From an uncultured bacterium (GTDB lineage Bacteria; Patescibacteriota; Minisyncoccia; Phycocordibacterales; GWA1-40-21), in the NCBI GenBank assembly GCA_903831595.1, contig CAIKXY010000004.1:96552-160551 (forward strand): a stretch of 64,000 nt of DNA. The letters are read 5' to 3'. The notes under the pieces were generated by a model, which was not told the origin of the DNA, did no database searches, and saw only the letters and a list, made by a program, of their open reading frames with translations. A program made the translations under genes and the position numbers. This document shows, piece by piece, positions 3,625-57,558 of the stretch. Every line of letters starts with the position of its first letter. The first letter of the stretch is position 1.

Positions 3625-3639
3625 AGTGTTTTCAAATGA

Positions 3640-5876: not shown

Positions 5877-5956
5877 CTTATTTTTCTTTTTTTTACAAAA
5901 CACCAGACGACCTTTATTGGTCGCCTATATAATAAAATAATTTGTATTTTTATAAA

Positions 5957-6184: not shown

Positions 6185-6294
6185 GTTTGTTTTAATTACT
6201 TGATAACTATATATTTATATCATAAATAATGGATTTTTGCGAAGTAAAAATCCATTATTTTTTAATATATGCTAACGTTATAAATATTAATAAG

Positions 6295-7527: not shown

Positions 7528-7531
7528 ATTA

Positions 7532-8254: not shown

Positions 8255-8258
8255 GAGA

Positions 8259-9839
8259 TTATAAGTTTGGTGATGCCAATATTTTATCTCCTTCTTTTAA
8301 CCCAGAAATGATTTCAACGTAACCATCAACACCGCGCATACCAGCTTCTACTTTTGTTTCGGTTATTGTTTTTAAATCATCACCACTAAGTAATTTTACA
8401 TATTTCAAAATATCAACCGAGTAAACTGACCTTGTAGGGACAGCCAAAACATTGTCTTTTTGCCCAGTTAATATATCAAGATTTGCTGTCATACCAGATT
8501 TTATTCTTTCATCTGAAGAGGATGCAAATTTTAAAGTAACTTTGTATGTAGGAACATTTTCTATTACAGTTTCTGCAGGATCTATTTTTATAACTGAAGT
8601 TTCAAAAAAAGTACCTGAACCATAAGCATCAAGTGTAGTTGTTGCAATATCACCAATTTTTATTTTAGCAATGTCTGCTTCTGATATGTAAGATTCGACT
8701 TCATATTGTCCGTATGAAATTACAGATAATGCTGACATTCCAGCTTGTATGGTTTCCCCAACTTTTGCAACAATGTTTGTTATTACTCCGTTTATTGGTG
8801 AAGTTATTATGGATTTATTTAATCTTGCCTGAGCTGCATCAACACTTGCTTGTGCCTGCTCAACTGTAGCCTCTTGTGCTTGTAATTGATCCGCAGTTGC
8901 GCCAGTCTTTGTTAAGGTAAGTTGGCTGTTTGCAATATTCAATGCAGATATCGCTGATTGATATTGATTGTCAGTGGTTGATAAATTATTTATTACTAAT
9001 GCCATACTTGATCTTGACGTTGAAACATTTGTTCTCCAAAGAGTAATTGCCGTCTGGCTTATTGAAGAGTTTTGCATTAATTTATTTACGGCCAAAGCAA
9101 GGTTTTGTAATAATAATTGGATTGCAGAAAGGTAATTATTTGATAATAAGACTGCTTCATCAATATTTGAATTCATAGTCAAATCTAGAATTGAAGCACT
9201 CCAAGTTGTTAGAATATTTTCTACATTAGCTCTTTCCGAGACAATATCATTTTGCAACTGAAAATCAGTTTGAAATTGCAAAGACGGACTCATACTTCGA
9301 GGATTTGTGAACATTAAGTCAACATAATTCCTAATAGCATCATCTGATTTGTTATATGCGTCTTTTATAGAATTTATTAAAGTATTTTTTGCATCTGCTA
9401 AGTCATTTCGTGCTTTATCAACTTGAGACTGATTTATAGCTATTTGCTCCGGTGTTGCTCCATTTTGAAGAGATGACAAATTTGCTTCGGCAATTTTAAG
9501 CCCCGCTTTTGCTTGTTCCACTGCAGCAACTAAATCCGCATTCGAAAGTGAAGCAAGATACTGTCCTTGGTAAACTTTGTCCCCAACAGATACATAAACA
9601 TGAGATACTTGACCACCAGTTTCAAAAGAAAGATTTAAATCTGAAAGGGGTTTTACATTACCCGTTGAACTCACAACTTCTACTATATTGTGTCTTGCAA
9701 CAGAAACACTATCAGCAACAGTTGATTTTTTACCGCTAAATATAAGGACACATAAGATTATAACAACAACTACGATTAGCACAGTCCACCATTTATTTTT
9801 TTTAATAAAATTTAAAATGCCAAAAAATATTTTTTTCAT
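8259..9839 (-). CDS. HlyD-family periplasmic adaptor (membrane fusion protein) of a MacAB-like efflux system
   Basis: N-terminal TM anchor, long coiled-coil region and C-terminal beta-barrel-like region; first gene of a three-gene run with 4-5 nt spacings. Confidence 0.7.
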   Translation of the reverse strand: MKKIFFGILNFIKKNKWWTVLIVVVVIILCVLIFSGKKSTVADSVSVARHNIVEVVSSTGNVKPLSDLNLSFETGGQVSHVYVSVGDKVYQGQYLASLSNADLVAAVEQAKAGLKIAEANLSSLQNGATPEQIAINQSQVDKARNDLADAKNTLINSIKDAYNKSDDAIRNYVDLMFTNPRSMSPSLQFQTDFQLQNDIVSERANVENILTTWSASILDLTMNSNIDEAVLLSNNYLSAIQLLLQNLALAVNKLMQNSSISQTAITLWRTNVSTSRSSMALVINNLSTTDNQYQSAISALNIANSQLTLTKTGATADQLQAQEATVEQAQASVDAAQARLNKSIITSPINGVITNIVAKVGETIQAGMSALSVISYGQYEVESYISEADIAKIKIGDIATTTLDAYGSGTFFETSVIKIDPAETVIENVPTYKVTLKFASSSDERIKSGMTANLDILTGQKDNVLAVPTRSVYSVDILKYVKLLSGDDLKTITETKVEAGMRGVDGYVEIISGLKEGDKILASPNL

Positions 9840-9888
9840 ATATAAATATTATATCAGATTTTTACTGAATTTGAAATAAAAAAATTTG

Positions 9889-9962
9889 TGGACGATACTG
9901 GATTCGAACCAGTGGCCTTACGAATGTGAATCGTATGCTCTAACCAACTGAGCTAATCGTCC
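9889..9962 (-). tRNA. tRNA-Val (anticodon CAC)
   Basis: Reverse complement GGACGAT-TA-GCTC AGTTGGTTA GAGC-A-TACGA TTCACAT TCGTA-AGGCC-ACTGG TTCGAAT CCAGT-ATCGTCC-A folds as a 74-nt cloverleaf with a perfect 7-bp acceptor stem; no encoded CCA. Confidence 0.75.
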
Positions 9963-10009
9963 TTTATTTTTTATATCTTTTATAATATACTTTTTTTGTT
10001 AAAATTGAA

Positions 10010-10082
10010 GGGCCGCTAGCTCATTTGGTAGAGCGCATCCATGGCATGGATGAGGCGACCGGTTCGATCCCGGTGCGGTCCA
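10010..10082 (+). tRNA. tRNA-Ala (anticodon GGC)
   Basis: GGGCCGC-TA-GCTC ATTTGGTA GAGC-G-CATCC ATGGCAT GGATG-AGGCG-ACCGG TTCGATC CCGGT-GCGGTCC-A; G3:U70 Ala identity pair present. Confidence 0.75.
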
Positions 10083-10244
10083 CAGGCGTATAAAATATCT
10101 GCATTTATGCTGATATTTAGCCTGTGGAAAGCGTAGCGATGTTTTGTGAGAATTAACGAACAAAACCGCGAGCTGGGGTCGCGAACACTTACATATTTTT
10201 GAAACTTTTAAGATTCAAAAATATTTAGTGATTCGTGATACACA
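10083..10244 (+). repeat. tRNA-Ala-linked conserved element, copy 1. An 8-bp stem (10080-10087 / 10120-10127) encloses an inner hairpin; a 121-nt GC-enriched structured core follows at 10124-10244.
   Basis: 97.5% identical (3 substitutions in 121 nt) to 13764-13884. Internal hairpins include GTTTTG..CAAAAC, CGCGA-GCTGGGG-TCGCG and TTTGAA..TTCAAA. Confidence 0.7.
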
Positions 10245-28925: not shown

Positions 28926-29546
28926 TTACACTTTTATTTCTTTGTCTTGCTTCTTTTTTATTAAAAAAGTATCTATTGCCCTACTAATAAAAATTCCAGC
29001 CACAATCAAAATCACAATAAATAAGACATGCTTAACTTTCCCTATGCTTTTCACAATTGGAGCGTAAGATTCATTGAAGAAATAACCAACCCAGATTAGA
29101 AAAGGTGCATAAATAAAAGTGGCTAAGGTGTTATACGTCATAAAAGTCTGATGTTTAACCTTTGTATGCCCAGAAAAAACTGGACCAACGAATCTCAAAA
29201 AAGGAATAAACCTACAAATAAAAACTGTTATGCCAATATGTTTGGTAATAAAATCCCTTCTTTTTGCAATTATTTTTAATGACAAAACTTCATGAATTAA
29301 TTTTGAAACATATTTATTGTTTTTGAGTGTAAGCGAGTAAACAATATTATCCCCAATTACAAAAGCCATTATGATAATAAAAACTGCAGGTATTGTACTT
29401 ATTAAGTTTGACTTAATCATGTAACCGGTAATAATAAGTATCATTTCCTCTGGGAAAGGAATCAGCGTACCAGAAAATAATGCGAAAAAGAAAATCGCTA
29501 AATAAGAAAAATGCTCAACCGAGACGATAAAAAGTGTGTCGTGCAT
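28926..29546 (-). CDS. DedA-family (SNARE-associated/TVP38) membrane protein
   Basis: GTLIPFPEEMILIITGY motif and topology. Confidence 0.8.
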   Translation of the reverse strand: MHDTLFIVSVEHFSYLAIFFFALFSGTLIPFPEEMILIITGYMIKSNLISTIPAVFIIIMAFVIGDNIVYSLTLKNNKYVSKLIHEVLSLKIIAKRRDFITKHIGITVFICRFIPFLRFVGPVFSGHTKVKHQTFMTYNTLATFIYAPFLIWVGYFFNESYAPIVKSIGKVKHVLFIVILIVAGIFISRAIDTFLIKKKQDKEIKV

Positions 29547-31303: not shown

Positions 31304-32386
31304 TTACAGGGTTTTAATACAATTGTTAAATGCTGACACTTCCTTATTATAATCAGCAACCCTGGCTTTTATCTCTGATGCTAAATTATTATAAAGACCA
31401 GCTAAAGCATTTCTTTCAGAAACTTTTGTATTATATGTTTGTGTGTCAGCAGCACTAATTGTCTTTAATTCAGTATCTATATTTTTTATATTATTTAAAA
31501 TACTATCTGCAGAAAATTTATATTGAGTAATTTTGTCTTTTAAAATTACTTCGGGAGACGTACACCCGGTCATTGGCTTTCCAAAAATCTGTGTAGCTAT
31601 CCAAACAGATTGACCATTATACATTCCCTGCATTGCATAAACACCGATTTCTGTATAATTTTTATTTAAAATATTTGCTCTATGACCTGGACTATCCATC
31701 CACGCATTCACGATACCTTTTGACCCATTAAAATTTCCAAGTGCAATGTTTTCCCCAATAGTAATATATGAATAACCATTTTTTACCGCCTCTTTTGAAG
31801 CATTATCACCTGTCGGAGAATTGTGTTCAAAATATTGTTCTGCAAACATATCCTTAACTCGAATCTCAGCAATGTTTGATAAAATGCTATTATATTTCAA
31901 ATCAACCAGACTTTGGTCATTGTCTTTTCTGGCATTATTTGTAAACATAATAATTTGACTAACATTTAAATCTCCGCCCCCGACACCAACATTTGTCATA
32001 TATATATCTGGCTCAGGATTATTTATTGATGACGTCTTCGGTAATTCAGGATTTGAAATATTACTGTTCCCATTTAAATTTAGTAATGATGTTTGATTTA
32101 TTTTATTTGTTAAATCTGTGGGTACCTTGTACGAAATACAAAATCTTTTTCCAAGATTAGTTCTTAATTCCCCGTCTTTCCATTCCCCAATAGATAAAGA
32201 TAAAATATAATTTTTACAAAAATCATTCTTTATCTGTCCAACAATTTTTGTACTTACGAAATTAATAATACCAGAAACTGTGTCAGTAAAAGTGGATGCC
32301 TTTGCGACATTGCAAAATAACACCAAAAACACAAAAGAAATAGACAAAAATAGAATAACTATGCGCTTATTATAAAAAGGTATCAT
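31304..32386 (-). CDS. secreted CAP/SCP (PR-1-like) domain protein
   Basis: Signal peptide; C-terminal CAP motifs GHRANILNKNYTEIGV and WIATQIFG. Confidence 0.7.
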   Translation of the reverse strand: MIPFYNKRIVILFLSISFVFLVLFCNVAKASTFTDTVSGIINFVSTKIVGQIKNDFCKNYILSLSIGEWKDGELRTNLGKRFCISYKVPTDLTNKINQTSLLNLNGNSNISNPELPKTSSINNPEPDIYMTNVGVGGGDLNVSQIIMFTNNARKDNDQSLVDLKYNSILSNIAEIRVKDMFAEQYFEHNSPTGDNASKEAVKNGYSYITIGENIALGNFNGSKGIVNAWMDSPGHRANILNKNYTEIGVYAMQGMYNGQSVWIATQIFGKPMTGCTSPEVILKDKITQYKFSADSILNNIKNIDTELKTISAADTQTYNTKVSERNALAGLYNNLASEIKARVADYNKEVSAFNNCIKTL

Positions 32387-42993: not shown

Positions 42994-43629
42994 ATGCCAC
43001 AAAAAGAAGTAATTATTGTTGTTCCTGGAGCAAAATATATACAATCAAAAATATTATTTGTTCAGAAGTTTGTTTTATTTTTCTATAGATTAGTCAATAT
43101 AAAAAATCCTGTTTATAAAAATTATATCAAGGATTGGGAACCATATTTAAAAAAAGATAACAGAAAAATTGTACTGCTTGATTGGGATCAAGGGCTTGCA
43201 CCTTGGTCACTTTGGCTTGCAAAACTAATGCTTAAAGTTCAAATATTTAAACATTTAAACGAGGGTCATACCGTAAATTTGATGGGTTTTAGTTTGGGGG
43301 GAGAAATCGTTATAAATACAATAAATGAATATAAAGACGGTGAAATAAACAAAGTTGTTTTAGTATGCTCCGTAAACACAGACAATACAATGGATAAAAA
43401 TATTACAAAATTTCTAAATATTTATTCACCACATGACTTGCTAGCAACAATAGCCATAAAAGTCTTTGCTCCCGTTCACGGTGGTAGTGTAATGCAGGGA
43501 GATTCAGTAAAAAATATTTCTATTGATAATTTTGGTCATGATAATTTTTGTATTAATGATATGATTGAAAACGGTACATATAAAGGTAAAAGAATTACTG
43601 ACTTTATTAATGAATTTTTTGATAAATAA
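42994..43629 (+). CDS. alpha/beta-hydrolase-fold protein (putative esterase/lipase)
   Basis: GFSLGG nucleophile elbow; downstream D (SPHD) and H (GHDNF) candidates. Confidence 0.5.
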   Translation: MPQKEVIIVVPGAKYIQSKILFVQKFVLFFYRLVNIKNPVYKNYIKDWEPYLKKDNRKIVLLDWDQGLAPWSLWLAKLMLKVQIFKHLNEGHTVNLMGFSLGGEIVINTINEYKDGEINKVVLVCSVNTDNTMDKNITKFLNIYSPHDLLATIAIKVFAPVHGGSVMQGDSVKNISIDNFGHDNFCINDMIENGTYKGKRITDFINEFFDK

Positions 43630-43635
43630 TTTTTT

Positions 43636-44046
43636 ATGGCCAAGGAATATTCGAAAAAAATTATTTGGAAAATTATGTATCATATTTGGCCACCAGTAGT
43701 TCGGTTATTAGAATTACTTAAAATACACAACTCCCGCCAAGATTTTCTTTTAGGATACTTATCTTCAAAATATAATAAAGATAATTTTATAAAATTTCTT
43801 TTTGAGAAAGGCTTTGAATTTAATGTGCTAGCTTATAGAGACCCAGGAGAAATTTTGGCAATGAGAAAACTTGATTCATTAATTTATCAATATCACATAA
43901 GACTTTTTAGTGATGGAGAAATAAGAGGTCATTATGAATATGCACCTGAAGCGAAGCCAATAGCTCATTCTTTTGCAAGATTGATGGAACCAAAAAAGGA
44001 GTACTTTGAAAAAGAATTCTGTGAATATCTAGGTTTAATTAAATAA
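43636..44046 (+). CDS. hypothetical protein (136 aa)
   Basis: ORF track; 7-nt spacing from the hydrolase gene. Confidence 0.4.
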   Translation: MAKEYSKKIIWKIMYHIWPPVVRLLELLKIHNSRQDFLLGYLSSKYNKDNFIKFLFEKGFEFNVLAYRDPGEILAMRKLDSLIYQYHIRLFSDGEIRGHYEYAPEAKPIAHSFARLMEPKKEYFEKEFCEYLGLIK

Positions 44047-44048
44047 TA

Positions 44049-44078
44049 AAAAGAGCCGGGGTAGTTCCGGCTCTTAGT
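44049..44078. terminator. bidirectional terminator (AGAGCCGG-GGTAGTT-CCGGCTCT)
   Basis: Perfect 8-bp stem between convergent genes. Confidence 0.65.
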
Positions 44079-45826: not shown

Positions 45827-46765
45827 TTATTTTAAAAATTCTTTCAGCTTATAATTCCTTAATGCGTCGTCATAACCTAATTTGAACGTTTTTTTGAGGT
45901 CATCCTGGTTGTGGTCAATTGCACTTATGGTTGTCGCTGTGCTTGGCTCAATATAAAACATCCCAATATTCTCTGGTATAACATAGTCTTTTGTTGTCTC
46001 ATTATTTTTTATTGCATTACGTATTGGATCACTTGCAATAAACGACAGTATTTTCCAATATAAAGAAGTGTCAGTTGGTTGATTTGGCAATGCTCTATCA
46101 TTATTGATGACCAAAATTTTTGTTGCTCCTTCTTTTATTGCCTTTTGTATGTTTATATCAACAGAAGATGCAACATCTCCATCAACATACTCACCTCCAT
46201 TTATATTAATTTTTTTGTTATACACTAGAGGTAATGCTACCGTTGCACGAGCAGCTTCAAATATATCAACCTTACCATCATTAGAAAGATACTCGACTTG
46301 CCCCGTCTCATAATTTGTCGCGCTCAAAAATAATTTTGTATTTGATTTTAAAATTTTATTGATATCAAGTGGTGTTTGTTGTTTAAAAACAACATCTACC
46401 AAATAATCCATATCAAATATTGGATATAATCTAGTTAAAGAAATAAATTTATCGGTAGATAATAACTCTGTCCAGATCCTTGTACCAAATTCGTACTGCT
46501 TAGAAATATAATAAAGTAAAGATGCTCCACCTCCAGAACTTCCGACTGCAATATCTGGCTCTGGGAATCCTAATTTTTCTCCCAGAGCCATTAGCACTCC
46601 GGCTGAATATGCACATTTCATCCCACCACCACTCACGACAATTGCAATCTTCTGTTTTTCTTTTGGGACTCTTGTTCTAACTTTTGTAGACGTTGTAATA
46701 ATCGATAACAGAACAAGAAGTAATATACAAAATATTAACAAAGAGAATAAATAAATTTTTTCCAT
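45827..46765 (-). CDS. patatin-like phospholipase
   Basis: Oxyanion GGGMKC; nucleophile GSSGG (GxSxG); catalytic DG(A) near YVDGDVAS; N-terminal TM. Confidence 0.8.
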   Translation of the reverse strand: MEKIYLFSLLIFCILLLVLLSIITTSTKVRTRVPKEKQKIAIVVSGGGMKCAYSAGVLMALGEKLGFPEPDIAVGSSGGGASLLYYISKQYEFGTRIWTELLSTDKFISLTRLYPIFDMDYLVDVVFKQQTPLDINKILKSNTKLFLSATNYETGQVEYLSNDGKVDIFEAARATVALPLVYNKKININGGEYVDGDVASSVDINIQKAIKEGATKILVINNDRALPNQPTDTSLYWKILSFIASDPIRNAIKNNETTKDYVIPENIGMFYIEPSTATTISAIDHNQDDLKKTFKLGYDDALRNYKLKEFLK

Positions 46766-46776
46766 GTAATAATAAA

Positions 46777-47364
46777 TTAAATAATAATATTTGCTAATAA
46801 TTCAGGAAATTTGTCTGTTTGCATTGATTTAAACGTAAAATGACGTTTCCCAGTAAATTCTTGAAATTCAACATTCTTTAATTTTGATTTAAGAATTTTT
46901 ATACTTTCAAGAACTTCTGCGTGGTCATCAGTTGAATACATTATTTTTACACCAGCGGTTTTTGATGCTAGATTTTCATCAATATCAAATGTGAAAAATT
47001 CTGGTTCGAACATTTCTCTTGGAATTTTTGTAGGGTACATGGGATTAATCCATGGCGCGACAAGAATGACCTGTCCAACTTTAATATTATTTTCACTAAG
47101 CCAGCGAACTAAAAAACCTCCTCCGCAAGAGTGACCTATTAAAATAGTTTCCTCATCAATGTTAAATTGTTCGAATGTGCTTTTCCAGTCTTCATAATGC
47201 GGCATATACGCTTTTGGCATTTCTGGTGTCTGAGCAAGAATATCTTTCAACAAAAGCTGTCTTTGAATCCATGGGAGCCAGTGCATATTTGAAGGGCTTG
47301 ATACATTAATATCATAATATTCTTCTTTTTGAGGCCATCCATGTATAATAATTGCTGTTTTCAT
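46777..47364 (-). CDS. YdeN/RBBP9-like serine hydrolase (alpha/beta fold)
   Basis: AIIIHGW and nucleophile GHSCGGG. Confidence 0.7.
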   Translation of the reverse strand: MKTAIIIHGWPQKEEYYDINVSSPSNMHWLPWIQRQLLLKDILAQTPEMPKAYMPHYEDWKSTFEQFNIDEETILIGHSCGGGFLVRWLSENNIKVGQVILVAPWINPMYPTKIPREMFEPEFFTFDIDENLASKTAGVKIMYSTDDHAEVLESIKILKSKLKNVEFQEFTGKRHFTFKSMQTDKFPELLANIII

Positions 47365-47368
47365 AATA

Positions 47369-47767
47369 TTATTTATTTAACCAAGTTACTGTAAGTTGCA
47401 AAATTGTTGCAAAAGTTCCCCAAAGTAGATATGGAATATTAATAAAAGAAACCCATTTTACATAAGGAAAAATTGAAACGATGGCCCAAACAAGAGTTCC
47501 AACAACTAGCAATATGTCTATTGCTGCTAAATAATTATTTTTTAAACCAAATTGAATTGGAGTAAACGCAAAGTTAAAAATAAGATTTAGGATAAATGGT
47601 AAAAGAACAATAAAAGGAATTTTCTTTGTAAAAAAAAGATAGCCAACATATCCGTAAGAAATTGCTATCAAAATATAAAGCACTGTCCACACTGGACCAA
47701 AAAGCCATGATGGTGGCGCAAAAAATGGTTTCTTTAATTGTGAGTACCACGAGTATGCTTGTGACAT
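47369..47767 (-). CDS. TspO/MBR (tryptophan-rich sensory protein) family membrane protein
   Basis: WYSQLKKPFFAPPSWLFGPVWTVLY matches the TspO N-terminal signature. Confidence 0.65.
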   Translation of the reverse strand: MSQAYSWYSQLKKPFFAPPSWLFGPVWTVLYILIAISYGYVGYLFFTKKIPFIVLLPFILNLIFNFAFTPIQFGLKNNYLAAIDILLVVGTLVWAIVSIFPYVKWVSFINIPYLLWGTFATILQLTVTWLNK

Positions 47768-47798
47768 GTTTTAATGATTATTTTATTACAGTATTATA

Positions 47799-48257
47799 TC
47801 ACTTTTTCCTTTTAAAAATAACATGGTCATAAATCGACATAACAATAAGAATTAATACTGTCATGATAAGAAACAGTTTGCTAAAACCTGAAGCAACGAG
47901 TGTCCTATCGAAACAAATCATTCCACTACAAATATCTGGGGTTGTAATTGTAATAATAAGAGAAATTATGAACACGGGAATCATTATTTTCGCCCAGAGT
48001 TTAAAAGTATTTTTTGAGAAGAAAAATAATAAAAAAGTAGAAATGATTAAGTAAGGTAAACTCCAATATAATGGTATTGATACACCATCCAACCAAAATG
48101 ATTCACACAAACCACTACCATGGCAAAGTCCAAGATTTTCTGGAAATCTTAAAACTTTTGATAATAAAAATGAGATAAAAAAGAAAATAGAAATAGATAA
48201 AATAACAACTCTATATTTATTCTCCCCCAAAAATATTTTTTTAATTATTTTAACCAT
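47799..48257 (-). CDS. hypothetical membrane protein with paired cysteines (possible thiol-disulfide oxidoreductase-like)
   Basis: 4 TM; CHGSGLC and CSGMIC in predicted loops. Confidence 0.35.
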   Translation of the reverse strand: MVKIIKKIFLGENKYRVVILSISIFFFISFLLSKVLRFPENLGLCHGSGLCESFWLDGVSIPLYWSLPYLIISTFLLFFFSKNTFKLWAKIMIPVFIISLIITITTPDICSGMICFDRTLVASGFSKLFLIMTVLILIVMSIYDHVIFKRKK

Positions 48258-48279
48258 TATATTTGTAATAATATTACCT

Positions 48280-51200
48280 TTATTTATAAAAAAAGAAAAC
48301 TGGAAAAATTGATTTGATCATTGAAAATAAAATATTTAAAAAATTTGGCACTTTATTTACTCCAACTGACGCTGTCATAATCAAATTATTTTTTGGACTA
48401 GTACTGGCATAACTGTATATGACAGGTGATACAATTCTCGCCTTTAAGCTCCGCGCAGCAAGCCCCCCATTTTTTACCTTATTATTTTTAGTTATGCTTT
48501 CCTCTATTTCTATCTTTTTTATATCTGAAAGGGTGGAGGTTGCAAAAATGGAAAGTGTTGACTTGCCAATAATTGTATCTAATATTGGAACAGTTGTGGT
48601 TGTATTTACAACTGATGGAATGTCGGGGGCAGCAATACTTGCTGGTAGACTTACACGACGTCTTGTATTTTTACTAATAACATTTATTATTCTTGAACTT
48701 GTAGCAATATTTCCGGAAGAATCCGTAACAATATAATCGAAATAGTATGTCCCAGGTTTTGTAATATCTAGATTTGTAGAAGTAGATATTAATGAAGTTA
48801 TTTCCCCGTTAACATTGTCGATTGCTTTAGCACCTAAATCAGCATAATCATCACCAACTATAATAGTAATTTGATTATCACCTAATAGTTTAAGAATTGG
48901 TGCCGTTGAATCCTGGCTATCGCTTGGCTCAATATAAAAATCTGTTATCCCATCTCCATTTGAATCTATCAACAAATTTGTCGAGGTAGAACTTGTTGCA
49001 TCAAACATTTCTGATGAAACCTTTATCTCTCCTGTAGTATTTTTTGTAGATGAAATATTTGTGTATCGTCTTCTTTTTAAAACAATACCGTCACTTGAAA
49101 CAACTTTTGTTTCAAGTGAGAAAACAGCGTCTTCTGTCCCCTTCAATTTGACTGTGTAATCTTCCCCTTCATTTAAAAAAACATTTGTACTATCACCAAC
49201 ATTTATATAACGACTTCCAGGTATATTTTCTTCCGCAACTTCTAAATCTGAATCCGGAAGTGGGTTTATCACCATACCTGTATATTCATTTTTTGCACTA
49301 TATACACCTAAACGTACTGGTGAATGTAGTGATAATTCCAATATTTTGTCTGTTGAGGTTGGTTTTTCTTTAGTGATGTATTCTGGCAAAATATCGTTTA
49401 AATTTAATACTATATTATTTACAAAATTTATCGTTGAAGTAGCTTCAAAAATATTTGTATGTGCCAAACTAATACCCGAATCTTTTTTTATTTTTTTTAA
49501 ATCTAAATAATATTTTTCAGCAGAATCAATTGTTGTGGCGCTTGGTACTACAACTGTACTATCTCCATCTTCCGTAACAATTGGATTCCTGTCCATAGTC
49601 TTTTTTGGTTTAAAACAAAAAATAAAACCAATTTCACAAACGTCATTTGCAAAATACTCTATTCCACTTACGGTTTTTATTCCCCAACCAGCAAGTTGGG
49701 TGACTTTTATATTTGAGGGCGGTAACCAATTATCAAGAACTGTGTGATTATCTTCTGCAATTTGAAGTAAATTTGATTTCAAAACATTCGGAGTAATAGT
49801 ATCACTATTCGCTGGCTCTTTCCTACCATCTACACCCAAAAGAAAATCTTTAAGCTCCATATAATTATCTATGATATTATTGTATTTTTCTCTTAAATTA
49901 TTAATATCATCAACAGATTCATCAAATTTAATAACTGGTGACGCAACTTTTGTAAAATATTCATTCTGTGGTAATAAATTGTAAGCCCCCATCATATTTT
50001 CACCCAAAGTTCTTGCTGTAGGTTTATTTAAAAAATAATACAAATCCTTAAGCGCAATTATTTCTTGCCCATCTCCGTGAAGCATAGCAGAAATGGCGCT
50101 TGGGGTACCAAGTTGTGGCGCGGCAACCATTACTAAATTATCAATTAAATTATCTTTGCCACGTTTTTTTAATTCGTTTATTAATACCTTTGCTAAAAGT
50201 CCACCATTACTGTGAGTAACAATTGCGACTTTTCCTGTCTGAGAGGAACTAGACATTTTTATAACTTCATCGATAAAATTTAGTCTTGAACCATCTTCAA
50301 GTAAAACTCCATCAGTAATTATTTTATTTAAATCATATCTCCAATCGTATGGTATAGCTTCCCAATCATTAATTTTTTTATCAGCAACCAAATCATCAAG
50401 CGAATTGGCAAAACTTTTGTAAACATTTTCATCCCAAATTCCAAGACCAATATTTGATCGTTTTATTATGTCTCTCGTATAAACGTTTTGGTTTATACTG
50501 TTCCCCGAATCATCCAAATATAATTTTTGTACATCAGCATTGCGATTTGGCTCCCAAAGTTGATTTTCGAAAAGTAATCCTTTTGTGTACAATCTACTTC
50601 CTTCAAGACCTGGAATAAAAATCACGTTTGAACAACATTTTGGTTTATCATCCGGCACAGATATCAGCCATGGCTGATATTCAACATTCGAGGAAACTTT
50701 ATTTGCAGTGCCCGAAGCATTTGTTTCAGTGTTGAATGGACCACTGGCATCTCCCCACCAATTATTAGTGGCTTTTATTTTTGGCATTTCGTGCCAATCA
50801 GAAAAAATGTCTAAGTATGAAGACAAATTTTTAATTCCAAATAATGTATTATTTTTTATCGTACTATGATTAATTTCTACATTTGCTCCGCGGCTATTTA
50901 TACCATTATTGTTCAAAGAGATTTCACTATCCGATATATTGACAACTGGATAATCATAAACCTGTATTCCATCTTTAGCAAAATTTTTAATTATTGTTTT
51001 TATAATATTTACTTCAACATTTTTATAAATTATTAAACCAGAAGCATTTCCATAACTTATAATTGAATTGTAGATATTTAATGTGGTTGTCGCGTAACTA
51101 TTGTTATCTGCACCAAATATTTCAATTGCTGCTTGATATTTATCGTTAATAGTATTTTTTAATAATGAATCAGAAAAGTTTAACCGGCTTCCATAATATA

Positions 51201-52098
51201 CTTCAAAAACTGTATTCGCAGAAATATTGTTGATACTTGAACTAGCAATATTTGCTGAACTATTAAAATACACCTGAAAAGCAGACCACCAGCCATTTGG
51301 CATATTTTCTATATTGGTATTGGTTATGTCCACAAAGCTATCTTCGGCAACTTCAGCTACATAATCCCCATTAACATTTAATATATTTGTATTGGTGATT
51401 TTTGCATGGCTACTATTAAATATCCCAAATAAACTATCAACATTATTAATAAATGAATCACTTATATCTATTGAGCTATTGTCGTATAGAACAAAATTAT
51501 GACTCCAACCACGGCTTTCGCCTATATTTTTTATATTAGAATGATTTATGTCAACCCTGCTATCTATAATGCCCGCAACACTTTGACAATTAACGATATC
51601 CGAATTAATTATGCTTCCTGTGGAATGATGGTAAATAAAAGCAATCTCTGCAAAAGAAACAACGACATTGTCTATTTCTGCAATTCCGCCATCATCAACT
51701 TCAATACCAGACCAGTCAGAATCTGACGGAAAAATTAGCCCTTCATCTGAACCAACATCTCCACCAACAGAGTCATCGTCAATCGATGTAAAATATACTT
51801 TTTCAGCATCAGAAATACCATTAGCAAAAAGTTTTCCAGAAATTATTATTGACTGACCATAATCAAATTTAACTACAACGCCAGGATTGATGTTTAAAGT
51901 TACACCGGCAGCAACTGTTAGATCTGAAGTGCTGTCTGGAGAAGCATAAATAACGTATGGGCTTCCCTCCGCAGTCCAAGTTGTATCTTCTGAAATCACA
52001 CCACCATAAATATCAGTCTCCGCATGAACAAAGCTAAAACAAAAGCAAAATAATAAAATAAATATTGCACACAGGTAATATTCACTAGTTTTTTTCAT
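48280..52098 (-). CDS. giant secreted/surface protein (1272 aa): N-terminal parallel beta-helix repeats, central alpha/beta-hydrolase lipase-like domain, Ig-like domain, C-terminal TM anchor
   Basis: Signal peptide; Asn/Ser-rich ~22-aa beta-helix repeats; GxSxG as THSNGG within a PGAP1/LCAT-like region; DNVNGEITS..DYIVTDSSGN Ig-like segment; C-terminal hydrophobic tail. Confidence 0.8.
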   Translation of the reverse strand: MKKTSEYYLCAIFILLFCFCFSFVHAETDIYGGVISEDTTWTAEGSPYVIYASPDSTSDLTVAAGVTLNINPGVVVKFDYGQSIIISGKLFANGISDAEKVYFTSIDDDSVGGDVGSDEGLIFPSDSDWSGIEVDDGGIAEIDNVVVSFAEIAFIYHHSTGSIINSDIVNCQSVAGIIDSRVDINHSNIKNIGESRGWSHNFVLYDNSSIDISDSFINNVDSLFGIFNSSHAKITNTNILNVNGDYVAEVAEDSFVDITNTNIENMPNGWWSAFQVYFNSSANIASSSINNISANTVFEVYYGSRLNFSDSLLKNTINDKYQAAIEIFGADNNSYATTTLNIYNSIISYGNASGLIIYKNVEVNIIKTIIKNFAKDGIQVYDYPVVNISDSEISLNNNGINSRGANVEINHSTIKNNTLFGIKNLSSYLDIFSDWHEMPKIKATNNWWGDASGPFNTETNASGTANKVSSNVEYQPWLISVPDDKPKCCSNVIFIPGLEGSRLYTKGLLFENQLWEPNRNADVQKLYLDDSGNSINQNVYTRDIIKRSNIGLGIWDENVYKSFANSLDDLVADKKINDWEAIPYDWRYDLNKIITDGVLLEDGSRLNFIDEVIKMSSSSQTGKVAIVTHSNGGLLAKVLINELKKRGKDNLIDNLVMVAAPQLGTPSAISAMLHGDGQEIIALKDLYYFLNKPTARTLGENMMGAYNLLPQNEYFTKVASPVIKFDESVDDINNLREKYNNIIDNYMELKDFLLGVDGRKEPANSDTITPNVLKSNLLQIAEDNHTVLDNWLPPSNIKVTQLAGWGIKTVSGIEYFANDVCEIGFIFCFKPKKTMDRNPIVTEDGDSTVVVPSATTIDSAEKYYLDLKKIKKDSGISLAHTNIFEATSTINFVNNIVLNLNDILPEYITKEKPTSTDKILELSLHSPVRLGVYSAKNEYTGMVINPLPDSDLEVAEENIPGSRYINVGDSTNVFLNEGEDYTVKLKGTEDAVFSLETKVVSSDGIVLKRRRYTNISSTKNTTGEIKVSSEMFDATSSTSTNLLIDSNGDGITDFYIEPSDSQDSTAPILKLLGDNQITIIVGDDYADLGAKAIDNVNGEITSLISTSTNLDITKPGTYYFDYIVTDSSGNIATSSRIINVISKNTRRRVSLPASIAAPDIPSVVNTTTTVPILDTIIGKSTLSIFATSTLSDIKKIEIEESITKNNKVKNGGLAARSLKARIVSPVIYSYASTSPKNNLIMTASVGVNKVPNFLNILFSMIKSIFPVFFFYK

Positions 52099-52185
52099 TA
52101 AAAAAATAATTTATTTGGAAATAAAAAACAATTCGAAAAATATAATAACACGAAGTCTAATAATATTTAAAATGTGGATAACTTC

Positions 52186-52250
52186 TTCCCCGAGGCTCCA
52201 CCTCGGGGAAAATAAAAAGACCCGCTTCGTGTAAAACGAAGCGGGCCCGA
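52186..52250 (-). terminator. tandem intrinsic terminators (CCCCGAGG-CTCCA-CCTCGGGG and CCCGCTTCG-TGTAAAA-CGAAGCGGG)
   Basis: Two perfect GC hairpins 3' of the 52252-52869 gene. Confidence 0.75.
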
Positions 52251-52251
52251 C

Positions 52252-52869
52252 TTAAGTCTTTCTTATCTTTCTGTTTACCCTGATCGGAGTAAACATCTTG
52301 ATAAGCCATGCTTTTGTCATGCAAGCCACCACATAAGCGATAACTGGAAAGACAAAAGAACAAATTGTTAATATTACTCCTGGCAATAGTCCAGAAAAAA
52401 AACCGGCACCAGCGAATACTCCAATGACTAATCCCGATACTCCGCCAATTCCTTTTTCTAGAACCTCTGCGAGGTCGCTCTTTGTCGCAAGTCCAGATAG
52501 TGTGCTTAGAATCACTAAAAAAATTAACATAGGAACAATCCCTATTTGGGCTCCGATGTACCCTCCGGCAAACAACCCAACTATAAGGCCAGCTTTTAAG
52601 GGCCGCCACACATCCTCTAGGCGCGTTTTCAAAAGATAATACACCGTAATAGCAATCGGGAGAATCATTAAATCCGCCCAACGGCTTATCTCAAAACTCA
52701 AGTTGAACCAGTAATGATAATGGTTTTCACCTGTGTTTCTAAGTACCCTTCCTACTGTAGGCATACCATAATCAGTTCCAACAAATCTCTCAAGCCACAA
52801 CAGGTGCACTAAGACTACAATTGCCATTTTCTCCAGCCAGTCAATTATATCGTTTTTCGTCTCAAGCAT
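52252..52869 (-). CDS. hypothetical Gly-rich multi-TM membrane protein in a GC-elevated segment
   Basis: 205-aa ORF with hydrophobic helices and glycine-zipper-like GxxxG runs; GC visibly higher than in neighbouring genes. Confidence 0.5.
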   Translation of the reverse strand: MLETKNDIIDWLEKMAIVVLVHLLWLERFVGTDYGMPTVGRVLRNTGENHYHYWFNLSFEISRWADLMILPIAITVYYLLKTRLEDVWRPLKAGLIVGLFAGGYIGAQIGIVPMLIFLVILSTLSGLATKSDLAEVLEKGIGGVSGLVIGVFAGAGFFSGLLPGVILTICSFVFPVIAYVVACMTKAWLIKMFTPIRVNRKIRKT

Positions 52870-52990
52870 TTATTACCCCCTTTTAATTGGATTTTGGAAT
52901 TTTGTTGGTTTTATTAAACTAATTTTTAGTGTCCTCCTGACCAATTTATACAGGTATTTTGTGATTTTGTCAATATAAAACAGCGGGTTG

Positions 52991-53290
52991 TTAATCCGCT
53001 GTTTTTAAAAGACCGTGCGAGTGATTGATAATAAACGCACGAGTTACCATCCCTATCGAACAAAATATAAAAAAGATTGACACATAGGGCAATAACTCCC
53101 GACCTAGTACTTCGAAAAGAATAAATCCTACAAGTCCAACAACTGTTGCAGCTGCATAAACTTTTTCTTCTGATGTGGTTTTGTTTATTATTGATTTTTT
53201 TAAAAACAAATCAATGATTACAACACCAATTACCACACCTAATACCGCGAAACAAATAAAACAAACTAAGTCAGACTCTATTCTTACCAT
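52991..53290 (-). CDS. hypothetical small membrane protein (99 aa)
   Basis: Three predicted TM helices; RBS AGGAGG upstream. Confidence 0.4.
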   Translation of the reverse strand: MVRIESDLVCFICFAVLGVVIGVVIIDLFLKKSIINKTTSEEKVYAAATVVGLVGFILFEVLGRELLPYVSIFFIFCSIGMVTRAFIINHSHGLLKTAD

Positions 53291-53667: not shown

Positions 53668-56331
53668 ATGGCAAAAAACAAAAAATACGTTTATGCATTT
53701 GAGGAAGGAAACAAGGATATGAAAGAAATCCTTGGAGGAAAAGGTGCGAACTTAGCAGAAATGAAAAATTTGGGAATCAATGTTCCCCCAGGTTTTACTA
53801 TCAGTACTGAAGCCTGTGCACTTTATTATGAAGTCGGCAAAAAAATAAATGCTGAAGTAAAAAAACAGACAGATATTAAACTTGCACAGCTTGAAAAGAA
53901 AATGGGAAAGAAGCTTGGAGATGCAAATGATCCCCTTCTAGTCTCCGTTCGCTCTGGTGCTTTCGCATCAATGCCTGGAATGATGGATACCATTTTGAAT
54001 CTTGGTTTAAATGACAAATCAGTTGTAGGACTTGCAAAAATCACAAACAATCCTCGCTTCGCGTGGGATTCATATAGAAGACTTATTCAGATGTTTGGAA
54101 ACGTTGTTATGGAAATGGGACATGGAGATTTTGAACACATTTTGGAATCTGTAAAAGATACAAAAGGTGCAAAATATGACACAGACCTTACAGCCGACGA
54201 TTTGAAAGAAATTGTTACAAAATACAAAGCAAAAATAAAAGCTGTCAAAGGAGTAGAATTTCCACAAGACCCTATCAAACAGATGTATTTGGCTATTAAC
54301 GCCGTTTTTAATTCTTGGAACAACTATCGCGCTATAAGATACAGAGAAATAAATAGCATCAAAGGACTTATCGGAACTGCTGTAAATATTCAAGCAATGG
54401 TCTTCGGAAATCTTGGAGATGATTCTGGAACAGGTGTATGCTTTACAAGAAATCCTTCAACAGGAGAAGCAAAATTCTACGGAGAATATTTGATGAACGC
54501 ACAAGGAGAAGATGTAGTCGCTGGTATCAGAACTCCCCTTTCTGTAGCAACATTGGCAAAAGCAAATCCAAAAATTTATAAAGAACTTGTCAGTATTTGT
54601 AATAAAGTTGAAAAACATTACAAAGATATGCAAGATATGGAATTTACAATTGAAAGAGGTGTGCTTTATATTCTTCAAGCAAGAAATGGTAAAAGAACTG
54701 CAGCCGCTTCTGTAAAAATCGCCGTTGACTTAGTAAAAGAAAAACTTATTTCACTCGAAACAGCACTTTTGAGAATTGACCCAAACCAATTAAACCAACT
54801 CCTACACAAACAGCTAGACCCAATCGCCGTTTCAAAAGCAAGAGTCATTGCACAAGGACTTCCAGCTTCTCCAGGAGCAGCTGTCGGAGAAGTAGTATTT
54901 ACTGCAGGTGAAGCGTTTGCAAAAGCGAAATCAGGTCTTGATGTAATTCTTGTTAGAACAGAAACATCACCAGAAGATATTGACGGTATGCACTCATCAA
55001 AAGGAATTTTGACAGCAAGAGGTGGTATGACAAGCCATGCTGCTGTGGTTGCACGAGGTATGGGAACATGCTGTGTGGCAGGTTGCGCAGATATTTCAAT
55101 CGATGAAAAAGCAAAGACACTTACAATAAAAAGCCAAGGGATTGTGATTAAAGAAGGAGAATTTATTTCTCTTGATGGTTCAACAGGAAAAGTTTATGAA
55201 GGAAAACTCGGAACGCAAGATGCATCATTGCTTGGAAACTTTGGAACTCTGATGAATTGGTCAGACAAATTTAGAAAAATTGGCGTGCGAACAAATGCAG
55301 ACACACCTCACGATGCACAAGTTGCTAGAAAATTTGGTGCAGAAGGTATTGGACTTTGCAGAACTGAACACATGTTTTTTGAAGGTGCTCGTATAAAAGC
55401 GGTTCGCGAAATGATACTTGCAGGCGATCTTGAAGCTAGAAAAAAAGCATTGGCAAAACTTTATCCATATCAGAAAGGAGATTTTGCTGGATTATTTGAA
55501 GCCATGGACGGTCTTGCAGTTACTATCAGACTATTAGATGCACCACTTCATGAATTCTTACCAAAAGAAAAGAAAGATATTGAGGAACTTTCAAAAGAAA
55601 TGAGAGTTGATGTAAAAACACTTGAAGCAAAGATTGAAGACCTACATGAATTCAATCCTATGCTTGGACACCGAGGTTGCAGACTTGCTATCACCTATCC
55701 TGAAATTTACGATATGCAAGCAATGGCAATCATTGATGCTGCAATTGAAGTAAAGAAAAACAAAAAAGCAAAGTCAGTCAAGCCAGAAATAATGATTCCT
55801 ATTGTTGCCACAACAAAAGAATTCTCAATCTTAAAAGATAGAATTGTAAAAATTGTTGAAGCAAAAATAAAAGAATCAAAAGTGAAAATTGAATATAAGA
55901 TCGGAACAATGATTGAAGTTCCACGTGCGGCTTTGATTGCAGATAAGATTGTAAATGCTGGTGCAGAGTTCTTCTCATTTGGAACAAACGATCTTACACA
56001 AATGGGAGCTGGACTTTCAAGAGATGATGCTGGTAAATTCTTAAAAGAATATGTTGCTCAAGATATTTTCGCTTATGATCCATTTGAAGTTTTGGACCAA
56101 GAAGGTATCGGCCAACTTATTAAAATCGCTATACAAAAAGGTAGGAGTATAAAGAAAGATTTGAAAGTTGGTATTTGTGGAGAACATGGTGGAGAGCCAA
56201 AAACAGTTGAATTCTGTCACAGGGAAGGATTAAATTATGTTTCTTGCTCACCATTTAGAGTACCAATCGCAAGACTCGCAGGAGCTCAAGCGGTAGTGAG
56301 AGAATTATTGAACAAAAAAGGAAAAAAATAA
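53668..56331 (+). CDS. ppdK: pyruvate, phosphate dikinase
   Basis: N-terminal EILGGKGANLAEM, catalytic His region GGMTSHAAVVARG, C-terminal PEP/pyruvate-binding domain; 887 aa. Confidence 0.95.
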   Translation: MAKNKKYVYAFEEGNKDMKEILGGKGANLAEMKNLGINVPPGFTISTEACALYYEVGKKINAEVKKQTDIKLAQLEKKMGKKLGDANDPLLVSVRSGAFASMPGMMDTILNLGLNDKSVVGLAKITNNPRFAWDSYRRLIQMFGNVVMEMGHGDFEHILESVKDTKGAKYDTDLTADDLKEIVTKYKAKIKAVKGVEFPQDPIKQMYLAINAVFNSWNNYRAIRYREINSIKGLIGTAVNIQAMVFGNLGDDSGTGVCFTRNPSTGEAKFYGEYLMNAQGEDVVAGIRTPLSVATLAKANPKIYKELVSICNKVEKHYKDMQDMEFTIERGVLYILQARNGKRTAAASVKIAVDLVKEKLISLETALLRIDPNQLNQLLHKQLDPIAVSKARVIAQGLPASPGAAVGEVVFTAGEAFAKAKSGLDVILVRTETSPEDIDGMHSSKGILTARGGMTSHAAVVARGMGTCCVAGCADISIDEKAKTLTIKSQGIVIKEGEFISLDGSTGKVYEGKLGTQDASLLGNFGTLMNWSDKFRKIGVRTNADTPHDAQVARKFGAEGIGLCRTEHMFFEGARIKAVREMILAGDLEARKKALAKLYPYQKGDFAGLFEAMDGLAVTIRLLDAPLHEFLPKEKKDIEELSKEMRVDVKTLEAKIEDLHEFNPMLGHRGCRLAITYPEIYDMQAMAIIDAAIEVKKNKKAKSVKPEIMIPIVATTKEFSILKDRIVKIVEAKIKESKVKIEYKIGTMIEVPRAALIADKIVNAGAEFFSFGTNDLTQMGAGLSRDDAGKFLKEYVAQDIFAYDPFEVLDQEGIGQLIKIAIQKGRSIKKDLKVGICGEHGGEPKTVEFCHREGLNYVSCSPFRVPIARLAGAQAVVRELLNKKGKK

Positions 56332-56337
56332 ATTAGA

Positions 56338-56376
56338 AAAAAAGAGCGGCGCCATAGGCGCCGCTCTTTTATTTTA
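56338..56376. terminator. bidirectional terminator (GAGCGGCGCC-ATAG-GGCGCCGCTC) between convergent ppdK and ackA
   Basis: 10-bp GC stem with A/T tracts on both sides. Confidence 0.75.
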
Positions 56377-57555
56377 TTATACCTTTTGCATATCTTTAGC
56401 CATCTGATTTATCTCATCAGTACAAACTACCAATACTTTTACTGGAGAGAAAAATGAACTTATTTTTCTATCAACACTTACTGTTTTATTGTTTTTCTTT
56501 TTACTGAGTTTGATACCAAGATATTCTAAATCTTTACAAATTCTTTCTCTCATAATAAATGACCTCTCACCTATCGTGCCTGAAAATACCAAAGTATCGA
56601 TTCCTCCCATTTCTGCAACGTAAGCACCAATATATTTTTTAATACTCATCACAAATTTTTCCAATGCCAATTCAGCGTCTTTGTCGCCCTTTGATTCAAG
56701 GACTAACAAATCACGAACGTCAGAGCTTTTGCCACCAGACAACCCTAGAAGACCACATTCATTATTGAAATATGCCTCAAGTTCAGTGATATCTTTGCCC
56801 AATTTCTGTCCTAGATACATAACAGCGACTGGGTCAATATCTCCAACTCTTGTAGACATGACAAGACCCTGTAGTGGTGTATAACCCATTGAAGTATCAA
56901 AACTTTTGCCATCCTTCAGGGCTACAACACTTAGTCCTCCACCGAGGTGACAAATTATAATTTTTTCAGAAATTTTGCCATTATTTTTCAATTTATTAAC
57001 AATGGATTTTACGGAAATTCCATGATAACCAAAATGATAAATGTCTAATTCTTTTGCAACATTTTTTGGAATAGCATAATTCTTTGCAAAATCAGGAATA
57101 TTTTTATGAAATGAACTATCTGAAATACCAACAATCTGAGTATTAGGAAATATTTTCTTTATTTCTTTTATTTCTTTCAGCGTGGTTGGAACATGGCGCG
57201 GAGCTTCTTCCTTTTCTTCCGTAATTTTCTCAACAAACCCTTCGTCAATAATTCTGTTTGACTGAAAATATGTCCCTGGAGAAACTATTCTTATGCTTAT
57301 TGAAGAAATATCTTCTTTACTTTCAATAATTTTATTATTTATTGCTTCTTGAATAAAATAATCCAAAGAATTATTAAATATCTCGTCATCTATTTTTATT
57401 GTTGTTGGTTTATTTTTGTTACCATCTGAATAAAAAGTTACGATTGCTTTACCAGTCTCTATTTCAAAATGACCAAAAAATAATTCTGATTTTTCATCAT
57501 AAATTGCGTATTTTGCCGAAACTGAACCTGTATTTACAATTAAATATTTTTTCAT
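56377..57555 (-). CDS. ackA: acetate kinase
   Basis: N-terminal LVNTGSVSAKYAIYD and HLGGGLSV motifs; 392 aa. Confidence 0.9.
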   Translation of the reverse strand: MKKYLIVNTGSVSAKYAIYDEKSELFFGHFEIETGKAIVTFYSDGNKNKPTTIKIDDEIFNNSLDYFIQEAINNKIIESKEDISSISIRIVSPGTYFQSNRIIDEGFVEKITEEKEEAPRHVPTTLKEIKEIKKIFPNTQIVGISDSSFHKNIPDFAKNYAIPKNVAKELDIYHFGYHGISVKSIVNKLKNNGKISEKIIICHLGGGLSVVALKDGKSFDTSMGYTPLQGLVMSTRVGDIDPVAVMYLGQKLGKDITELEAYFNNECGLLGLSGGKSSDVRDLLVLESKGDKDAELALEKFVMSIKKYIGAYVAEMGGIDTLVFSGTIGERSFIMRERICKDLEYLGIKLSKKKNNKTVSVDRKISSFFSPVKVLVVCTDEINQMAKDMQKV

Positions 57556-57558
57556 ATT

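Follow-up and report, generated by a model that had tools for sequence, protein, structure and literature searches.

We analysed a 64-kb stretch of DNA (the window) from an uncultured member of the Patescibacteria (contig CAIKXY010000004.1), and its open reading frames (ORFs) of at least 100 amino acids (aa) were scanned with Pfam. Six ORFs followed one another on the minus strand from 52098 to 45388. They encoded a giant protein, a 152-aa membrane protein, a TspO homologue, a YdeN-type hydrolase, a patatin-like protein and a DUF805 protein (Table 1), and the gaps between them were 22, 31, 4, 11 and 94 nt. A sequence-only reading of this region had described four consecutive genes, 4-30 nt apart, flanked by a Cys-pair membrane protein and DUF805, and had taken patatin, YdeN, TspO and the giant for one lipid-active module. 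The ORFs, coordinates and strand in that description were correct, but the Cys-pair protein of 152 aa intervened between the giant and TspO, and only DUF805 lay outside the four genes, after patatin. The domain calls for patatin, YdeN, TspO, DUF805, LCAT and the immunoglobulin-like (Ig-like) domain all scored above the Pfam cutoffs. The motifs named for patatin (GxSxG and DG; Ser77 and Asp195) and for the giant (THSNGG; Ser630) were present. An NCBIfam scan gave nothing specific beyond the Pfam assignments for the locus proteins. The comparisons described below showed that the conserved unit is the LCAT-fold protein together with the small transmembrane (TM) protein.

Table 1. Features of the locus, in window positions
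Feature	Position	Strand	Evidence
Giant exported protein, 1272 aa	48280..52098	-	ORF, Pfam, 97 homologues (nearly all Patescibacteria), alignments
Predicted signal peptide of the giant, aa 1-26 (MKK, hydrophobic core, VHA followed by ET)	52021..52098	-	Hydropathy and charge analysis; sequence reading
Right-handed beta-helix region, aa ~27-484, NNWWGDASGP motif at its end	50647..52020	-	Pfam Beta_helix sub-threshold; PF13229 in homologues
LCAT/LPLA2-fold alpha/beta hydrolase domain, aa ~485-905	49384..50646	-	
Predicted catalytic Ser630, THSNGG elbow	50209-50211	-	
Predicted catalytic Asp846	49561-49563	-	
Predicted catalytic His880	49459-49461	-	
Beta-sandwich after the hydrolase, aa ~918-1060, HSPVxxxxYxxxxxHTG motif	48919..49347	-	AlphaFold2 strands; conserved columns
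Bacterial surface Ig-like domain, PF16403, aa 1070-1140	48679..48891	-	Pfam E 3.3e-17
MTASVG motif, aa 1239-1244, preceding the tail	48367-48384	-	
C-terminal tail: hydrophobic 19-mer FLNILFSMIKSIFPVFFFY + K	48283..48342	-	Hydropathy analysis
Small 4-TM partner with Cys pair, 152 aa	47799..48257	-	AlphaFold2 model, adjacency in loci
TspO/MBR homologue, 132 aa, lineage-specific neighbour	47369..47767	-	Pfam
YdeN-type serine hydrolase, 195 aa, lineage-specific neighbour	46777..47364	-	Pfam PF06821
Patatin-like phospholipase, 312 aa	45827..46765	-	Pfam
DUF805 membrane protein, 114 aa	45388..45732	-	Pfam E 2.8e-33
Hairpin of 13 bp (8 GC) resembling a strong intrinsic terminator, upstream of the giant, between it and the gene for a 205-aa membrane protein	52218..52248	-	
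Next convincing minus-strand terminator	44051..44075	-	
Promoter-like site (TTTAAA-18-TATTAT, TG present) within the 153 nt that precede the giant	52142..52171	-	Weak

The central region of the giant matched the Pfam family LCAT (PF02450) at aa 579-855, with E 4.7e-16 and 59.4 bits against a cutoff of 21. An AlphaFold2 (AF2) model of aa 480-1065 had a predicted local distance difference test score (pLDDT) of 91 and a predicted template modelling score (pTM) of 0.92. In an alignment of 31 sequences, with identity down to 23%, the YDWR motif of aa 584-587 (Y584-R587), H629, S630, G632, G633, G845, D846, and H880 were invariant. Ser630, Asp846, and His880 were also invariant in an alignment of 57 sequences. 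A profile of the family matched the LCAT and LPLA2 sequences of the PDB with E ~2e-14, and the HMMER alignment placed the family Ser, Asp, and His on S181, D345, and H377 of LCAT. When folds were compared, LPLA2 outscored all other hydrolases widely and 325 of 376 residues were covered, including regions outside the core alpha/beta fold. The likeness in overall fold extended to the cap and membrane-binding parts of LCAT/LPLA2. The second-best structural match was Tle4 (PDB 4R1D), a type VI secretion system (T6SS) effector. On both alignments and model, the central domain is a true LCAT/LPLA2-fold hydrolase. It looks catalytically competent, as judged from its residues, and the lipase-like domain proposed earlier kept its triad on sequence and structural alignment alike.

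The likeness to LCAT/LPLA2 (group XV PLA2) thus lay in the aligned Ser-Asp-His triad, its spacing, the YDWR motif and a Pfam score well over the gathering cutoff. In contrast, sequence identity was only ~13-18%, and the window's domain is bacterial and set between the beta-helix and the beta-sandwich/Ig domains of a 1272-aa surface protein. The nucleophile elbow of the window family reads (T/A)HSNGG, and the window enzyme is paired with a 4-TM protein.

The giant has a classical signal peptide (Table 1). The Beta_helix match scored below cutoff in the giant itself (21.9 vs 25.9 bits, E 1.5e-4) and was precomputed for nearly all of its homologues. Behind the hydrolase domain, the beta-sandwich showed conserved columns in the 31-sequence alignment at H925, S926, P927, Y933, D934, H939, T940, and G941. 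The Ig-like domain was limited to the window's clade; among the LCAT-domain homologues it was found only in P0001 and P0002, and it was also found in L089 (P, protein homologues; L, loci). PF16403 occurred in a few unrelated beta-helix or surface proteins of the homologue list as well. A Ser/Thr-rich linker joined the Ig-like domain to the C-terminal hydrophobic tail. The sequence-only reading had called this tail a TM anchor. A hydrophobic tail was indeed present, but the 19-mer (residues 1253-1271) was only moderately hydrophobic, with a Kyte-Doolittle hydropathy of 1.69 and an internal Lys.

Two unrelated kinds of C-terminus were found in the giant family, and the small TM partner was present with both. 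In the first kind, a (L/M)TASV(G/A) motif was followed by a segment of hydrophobic or amphipathic character and by basic residues, which resembled a tripartite sorting signal. The second kind formed a helical tail that was rich in lysine and closed with ..LL.MLNQLLDNL(I/M)K. In some relatives the tail was a true TM segment. The TASVG-type motif was confined to the giant family in the window and all fetched loci. A general sorting signal made of TASVG, hydrophobic segment and basic residues was considered, and the pattern is recorded here as an observation. No sortase-like gene was found among the scanned ORFs of the window.

An exact-sequence look-up of the giant gave no record, and its genomic context was therefore traced by way of homologues and of the small TM protein. 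A database search returned 97 homologues of the giant, of which the ~65 best shared the LCAT domain. Where named, these ~65 were annotated as Paceibacterota, Minisyncoccia, Parcubacteria, Taylorbacteria or Patescibacteria group, and most had the architecture Beta_helix + LCAT (+DUF7379/PGAP1). The N-terminal module is exchangeable, because family members of 887-890 aa had no beta-helix. Two such LCAT-fold proteins, in L095 (4537-8429) and L096 (5328-8432), carried a different N-terminal domain of ~190 aa in its place and kept the small TM partner. The L095 pair adjoined a Y1 (IS200-like) transposase, and PKD-domain surface proteins lay downstream.

Conservation of the pair was investigated in a wider scan of one genome per GTDB species, which gave ~28 further Patescibacteria loci, 25 of them with a complete 3' end. 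The ORFs were compared by phmmer and hmmsearch, and the small TM gene was found with an iterated profile. A small gene with 3-4 TM segments stood at -4 to +18 nt from the giant in 15-16 of the 25 species-level loci. Overall, with L001, L003, L004, L006, and L089 counted in addition to the species-level loci, it lay directly downstream, at -4..+29 nt, in ~20 of 30 loci. The loci with this arrangement were L001-L007, L009, L011-L016, L018, L020, L026-L028, L031, L047, and L089-L091. The reverse look-up agreed. The small-TM homologues P0098, P0103, P0108, and P0110 all stood directly after a gene with an LCAT domain, and some small-TM homologues followed the 887-890 aa LCAT proteins that have no beta-helix. 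Giants of ~50% identity were found in three unrelated neighbourhoods (L001/L002, L003, and L006), where the small membrane gene was the sole companion. The pair was found in Nomura-, Kaiser-, Moran-, Zambryski- and other Paceibacteria-type genomes. Because adjacency was seen in both search directions and the other genes were not linked, the conserved unit is the LCAT-fold protein and the small TM protein.

The surroundings of the pair varied. In the window, a block of TerC, Zip, HlyD-like, ABC, and MacB/FtsX genes (6295-13557) lies ~40 kb from the pair. In L001, with ~51% identity, the pair directly follows this block (3545-9576). This meant that the pair had moved relative to a conserved backbone. 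In L015, methyltransferase-like and DUF262/HNH-like genes (13224-17075) were inserted downstream of the pair, and two duplicates bordered the insert, one a piece of the giant's 3' end and the other a second small TM gene. The insert resembles a mobile island for defence or restriction-modification that came with a target duplication. The second copy was considered as an immunity array and this was rejected, because the inserted methylase/DUF262-HNH island had duplicated the 3' end of the giant. A tandem pair of small TM genes was found in L012.

The AF2 model of the small partner had a pLDDT of 80 and showed four TM helices. Both termini were basic, and an N-in/C-in topology is therefore predicted. 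There were two short ecto-loops of disulfide type; the first carried Cys45 and Cys51, and the second was a beta-hairpin with Cys110 and Cys115. A profile search of the full library gave 119 clusters at 50% identity. All were standalone proteins of 44-187 aa, mostly ~130-150. Across 53 clusters, C45, C51, P62, and W88 were nearly invariant, and the second Cys pair and the following D-R were common; the mean column identity of the family was 25%. The partner had no Pfam or NCBIfam match, no family member had a meaningful Pfam match, and the model gave no significant match to PDB folds (best E 1.9). A DsbB/VKOR-like disulfide oxidoreductase was also considered for the small protein. It was rejected because there was no CXXC, the second Cys pair was missing in many members, and the VKOR fold matched only with E 6.9 and a probability of 0.07. 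The small 4-TM proteins are an uncharacterised family.

The other three genes behaved differently from the pair. Close relatives kept the order giant, small TM, TspO, (YdeN), patatin, ExoX; the small TM proteins of L089/L091 were 66% identical to that of the window, and the giants of L004/L005/L090 were 74% identical. In these relatives the neighbourhood was wholly collinear, with XFP, AckA, and PPDK on one side and ABC-F, PQ-loop, and DEAD helicase on the other. Several changes were seen inside it. An APH kinase and a 184-aa gene stood between TspO and YdeN in L004/L005/L090 (L004, 6687-8333), and in L092 (650-2050) patatin directly followed TspO without YdeN. DUF805 was found at this position only in the window genome and was absent from the syntenic L004, L089, and L091. 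The giant, TspO, YdeN, and patatin occurred together only in the window's clade (L004/5, L086-L092), with insertions and deletions. No TspO or patatin was found within 10 kb of a giant homologue in the 25 species-level Patescibacteria loci, and one YdeN-like gene was found 6 kb from the giant in L012. The four-gene locus is thus a lineage-specific juxtaposition in one genus-level clade, and the single module claimed earlier did not hold beyond it. Within the window's clade, TspO, YdeN, and patatin may still be linked locally to the pair in function.

The three neighbours were bona fide members of their families (PF01734, 1UXO/PF06821, and PF03073) by Pfam score and by catalytic or family motifs. 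Patatin matched with E 2.2e-17 and 64.3 bits against a cutoff of 27.7. GGGM46-49, Ser77 (GSSGG), and Asp195 (DGD) were invariant in 23 homologues, and the motif reads GGGMK in the window protein. It had a single N-terminal TM segment at aa 6-24 followed by a +5 charge cluster. This segment, in which it differs from known patatins, was found only in the window's clade, and distant homologues had none. From the positive-inside rule and those homologues, the catalytic domain is predicted to lie on the cytoplasmic face. Patatin homologues of 33-35% identity stood between FtsH and SmpB, away from all other genes of the locus, and a scan of metagenome contigs for patatin returned only 3 close relatives. 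The YdeN-like protein matched PF06821 with E 3.6e-9 and 37.2 bits against a cutoff of 22. Compared with B. subtilis YdeN (1uxo; E 2.4e-11), its GHSCG aligned with AHSLG, and the triad Asp and His fell outside the aligned stretch. It had no signal peptide or TM segment and is predicted to be cytoplasmic. TspO matched TspO_MBR (PF03073) with E 1.4e-28 and 99.9 bits over profile positions 20-145. Known TspO proteins have five TM helices, but the window protein lacked the first one, since its ORF is bounded by an upstream stop codon; the alignment began at residue 29 of RsTspO and residue 58 of BcTspO. The 132-aa form is not an assembly truncation, because L004 and L089 keep the same form. The products had been proposed to form a module that attacks or scavenges the membrane lipids of a host or partner. 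Joint action on a host membrane is contradicted by the giant being exported while patatin and YdeN are predicted to be cytoplasmic. Patatin, YdeN, and TspO could therefore not attack a foreign membrane beside the giant and would act at most downstream, inside the cell.

Transcription signals of the run were also searched. The only convincing minus-strand terminators were at 52248..52218 and 44075..44051, and the terminator-free run also took in the gene of an unrelated exonuclease, ExoX, and an ORF of 159 aa. This suggests a possible unit of eight genes (giant, small TM, TspO, YdeN, patatin, DUF805, ExoX, and the 159-aa ORF). Promoter-like sites in the region numbered 65 against 51 +/- 6 after shuffling, which is uninformative in AT-rich DNA. 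The GC content of the window was ~32%. Co-orientation and tight spacing are the genomic background here, because the minus strand carries 44 of the 52 window genes, and gaps of at most 35 nt make up 44% of those between same-strand genes.

The genes around the run were recorded as well. Upstream of the giant, at 52252-53290 on the minus strand, two multi-TM proteins of 205 aa and 99 aa had no Pfam match; their genes keep this position in L089/L091, and the terminator at 52248..52218 separates them from the giant. Just beyond the other end, at 42994-44046 on the plus strand, lay a gene for an alpha/beta-hydrolase-like protein (211 aa, GFSLGG elbow, weak Abhydrolase matches only) and a 136-aa ORF, and this pair was kept in L004 (11313-12344). 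The 211-aa protein could be a further lipase-like enzyme. PPDK (+), acetate kinase (-), and phosphoketolase XFP (-) were grouped at 53668-59943, collinear with L089; this block is a fermentative phosphoketolase-to-acetate route typical of reduced genomes. Four tRNA genes, one Val-CAC and three tRNA-Ala (GGC, CGC, and UGC), lay within 4 kb at 9888-13723, interleaved with small ORFs and with Zip and TerC transporter genes. A VTT/DedA-family membrane protein was encoded at 28926-29546 and a 360-aa protein with a CAP (cysteine-rich secretory protein) domain at 31304-32386, both on the minus strand. DedA proteins are tied to lipid flipping in other bacteria, and both proteins could be relevant to the envelope or to host interaction. 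The wider window held ordinary Patescibacteria housekeeping genes, including MacB/ABC/HlyD, UvrABC, TGT, Ddl, PPDK, acetate kinase, phosphoketolase, Pif1, and tRNAs.

How Patescibacteria, or bacteria of the candidate phyla radiation (CPR), acquire membrane lipids is an open question (PMC7242380). CPR bacteria without lipid synthesis were described as enriched in lysolipids, with lipids probably taken from other cells, and a phospholipase A route was suggested (PMC7242380). A secreted phospholipase was proposed for scavenging host lipids in the CPR predator Vampirococcus lugosii (PMC8080830). The sequence-only reading had suggested a fit to a reduced-genome, possibly episymbiotic organism lacking lipid synthesis. 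At the level of the group this agreed with its Patescibacteria/Paceibacteria-type affiliation, since the group is reported to be without lipid biosynthesis (PMC7242380; PMC8080830). With slightly more conviction than doubt, we read the pair as a surface phospholipid deacylase or transacylase with a membrane partner, which would feed acyl chains to a lipid-dependent cell. The giant would be exported by the Sec route and then tethered at the cell surface by its C-terminal hydrophobic tail. There it would remove or transfer the acyl chains of glycerophospholipids in the membrane of a host or neighbour, or in membrane debris, which would yield fatty acids and lysolipids for a cell unable to make its own lipids. 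The four-helix partner, in the producer's membrane, would dock and/or silence the enzyme; it might serve as a dock, protect the producer as an inhibitor, or offer an acceptor or transfer site. TspO, YdeN, and patatin would be intracellular or intramembrane neighbours gained in one genus-level lineage, and they may process lipids inside the cell. This reading starts from the observed gene content, fold, triad, export signal and adjacency and from the missing co-conservation of the other genes, and from these we infer a substrate and a direction of attack. The role of the partner was deduced from gene order, from spacing like that of translational coupling and from the analogy with phospholipase effectors and their cognate proteins, for which immunity and activator roles are both possible (4R1D; bioRxiv 10.1101/2023.03.28.534661).

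Several points weigh against this reading. The partner is not obligatory, because a small TM gene could not be recognised in about 9 of the 25 species-level loci. Its ecto-loops are only ~12-16 residues long, which is small for an inhibitor, and Pfam and PDB fold searches showed no similarity to a known immunity or anchor protein. Simple docking of the tail to the partner is disfavoured, because both unrelated kinds of C-terminus keep the partner. LCAT-fold enzymes are able to use other esters. No lipid biosynthesis genes were found in the 64-kb window, which is only part of the genome. In addition, five genes stay together across three to four lineages of the window's clade.

This last point bears on the possibility that the giant, (the small TM protein), TspO, YdeN, and patatin form one co-transcribed pathway of lipid acquisition, in which the exported lipase would release acyl chains or lysolipids, TspO would bind or import a hydrophobic ligand, and YdeN and patatin would remodel lipids on the cytoplasmic side. 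The four short gaps from the giant to patatin and the absence of an intergenic terminator between 52218 and 44075 are consistent with it. So are the order retained in L089/L091, and in L004/L005/L090 with an insertion, and the three products from lipid-active enzyme families with intact catalytic residues. However, the genes were not co-conserved beyond one genus-level clade, and within it the general synteny from XFP, AckA, and PPDK through ExoX, ABC-F, and DEAD explains their retention. The array tolerated the APH kinase and 184-aa insert, the loss of YdeN in L092 and the insertion of DUF805. Moreover, an ExoX exonuclease lies in the same terminator-free run, and tight same-strand packing is the background. 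We consider such a pathway quite unlikely.

A toxin-immunity pair was weighed on other grounds. The giant would then be a contact-dependent, membrane-lysing phospholipase directed against host or competitor, like the Tle effectors of the T6SS, with the 4-TM protein as its immunity protein and lipid nutrition incidental. The order of the genes, with the effector first and an overlapping or nearly abutting small gene behind it, would be as expected, and the partner, with a mean column identity of 25%, evolves quickly next to a conserved catalytic domain. Against this, the window held no T6SS or other injection apparatus, the enzyme appears to be tethered to its producer, and the partner has no relation to Tli4, shows no more than two very short loops to the outside and is missing in about a third of the loci. 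The second copy in L015 came from the insertion of an island and not from an immunity array. No injection apparatus such as T6SS is known in this bacterial group. We regard a toxin-immunity pair as unlikely. If phospholipids were not the substrate at all, the giant might be a surface esterase or depolymerase that acts on non-membrane esters, such as polysaccharides of the cell wall or capsule that are acetylated or esterified, polyesters like polyhydroxybutyrate (PHB), or the acyl groups of lipoproteins or teichoic acids, with the beta-helix as the part that binds the polymer. Domains of this kind are typical of adhesins and of enzymes active on polysaccharides, the N-terminal module can be exchanged, and the weaker sequence and structure matches included the PHB depolymerase PhaZ7, assorted esterases and cutinase-like lipases. 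These matches were left far behind by LPLA2 with its 325 of 376 residues covered, the YDWR motif of the LCAT family and its triad spacing were conserved, and the best bacterial match was a phospholipase effector. A non-membrane substrate is highly improbable on this evidence.

LCAT and LPLA2 transfer acyl chains rather than only hydrolysing them. In a very unlikely extension, the LCAT-fold enzyme and its 4-TM partner would be an extracellular transacylase machine specific to Patescibacteria, which moves acyl chains from host phospholipids to lysolipid or other acceptors in the outer leaflet of the symbiont, with the 4-TM protein presenting or organising them. If true, membrane lipid would be built without fatty-acid synthesis, activation or ATP, and this would explain the lysolipid-rich membranes reported for CPR bacteria.

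Two described systems were compared with the surface phospholipid deacylase or transacylase that we favour. As in Tle4-Tli4 (4R1D), the hydrolase is structurally related to Tle4, and the gene of a membrane-targeting lipase lies directly upstream of a small gene. In contrast, the window enzyme has a Sec signal peptide and a C-terminal tether, and its adjacent gene encodes an integral 4-TM protein without similarity to Tli4. Pairing was found in about two-thirds of the loci of the window family and not invariably. No VgrG, Hcp, PAAR or T6SS genes were found among the scanned ORFs. The Vampirococcus phospholipase and the CPR lysolipid hypothesis share with the locus a Patescibacterium auxotrophic for lipids, a lipid hydrolase that is exported and surface proteins of giant size (PMC8080830; PMC7242380). 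This is a likeness of rationale, and neither paper describes an LCAT-fold fusion to a beta-helix or a conserved 4-TM partner. The literature on LCAT, lipase or phospholipase in Patescibacteria, Parcubacteria or CPR that we searched contained no description of the giant family or of the pair. Exported CPR phospholipases and lipid scavenging have been published already, and the LCAT-fold/beta-helix family and its 4-TM partner are undescribed in the literature found.

Patatin, YdeN, and TspO were a misleading lead, being lineage-specific and predicted to be intracellular, and attention should therefore be given to the two-gene pair. The pair is a concrete, widespread and testable candidate for how CPR bacteria obtain lipids. 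Should the partner turn out to serve a surface phospholipase as immunity, docking or acceptor factor, a monoderm-like ultrasmall bacterium would have a new way to protect itself or to transfer lipids.

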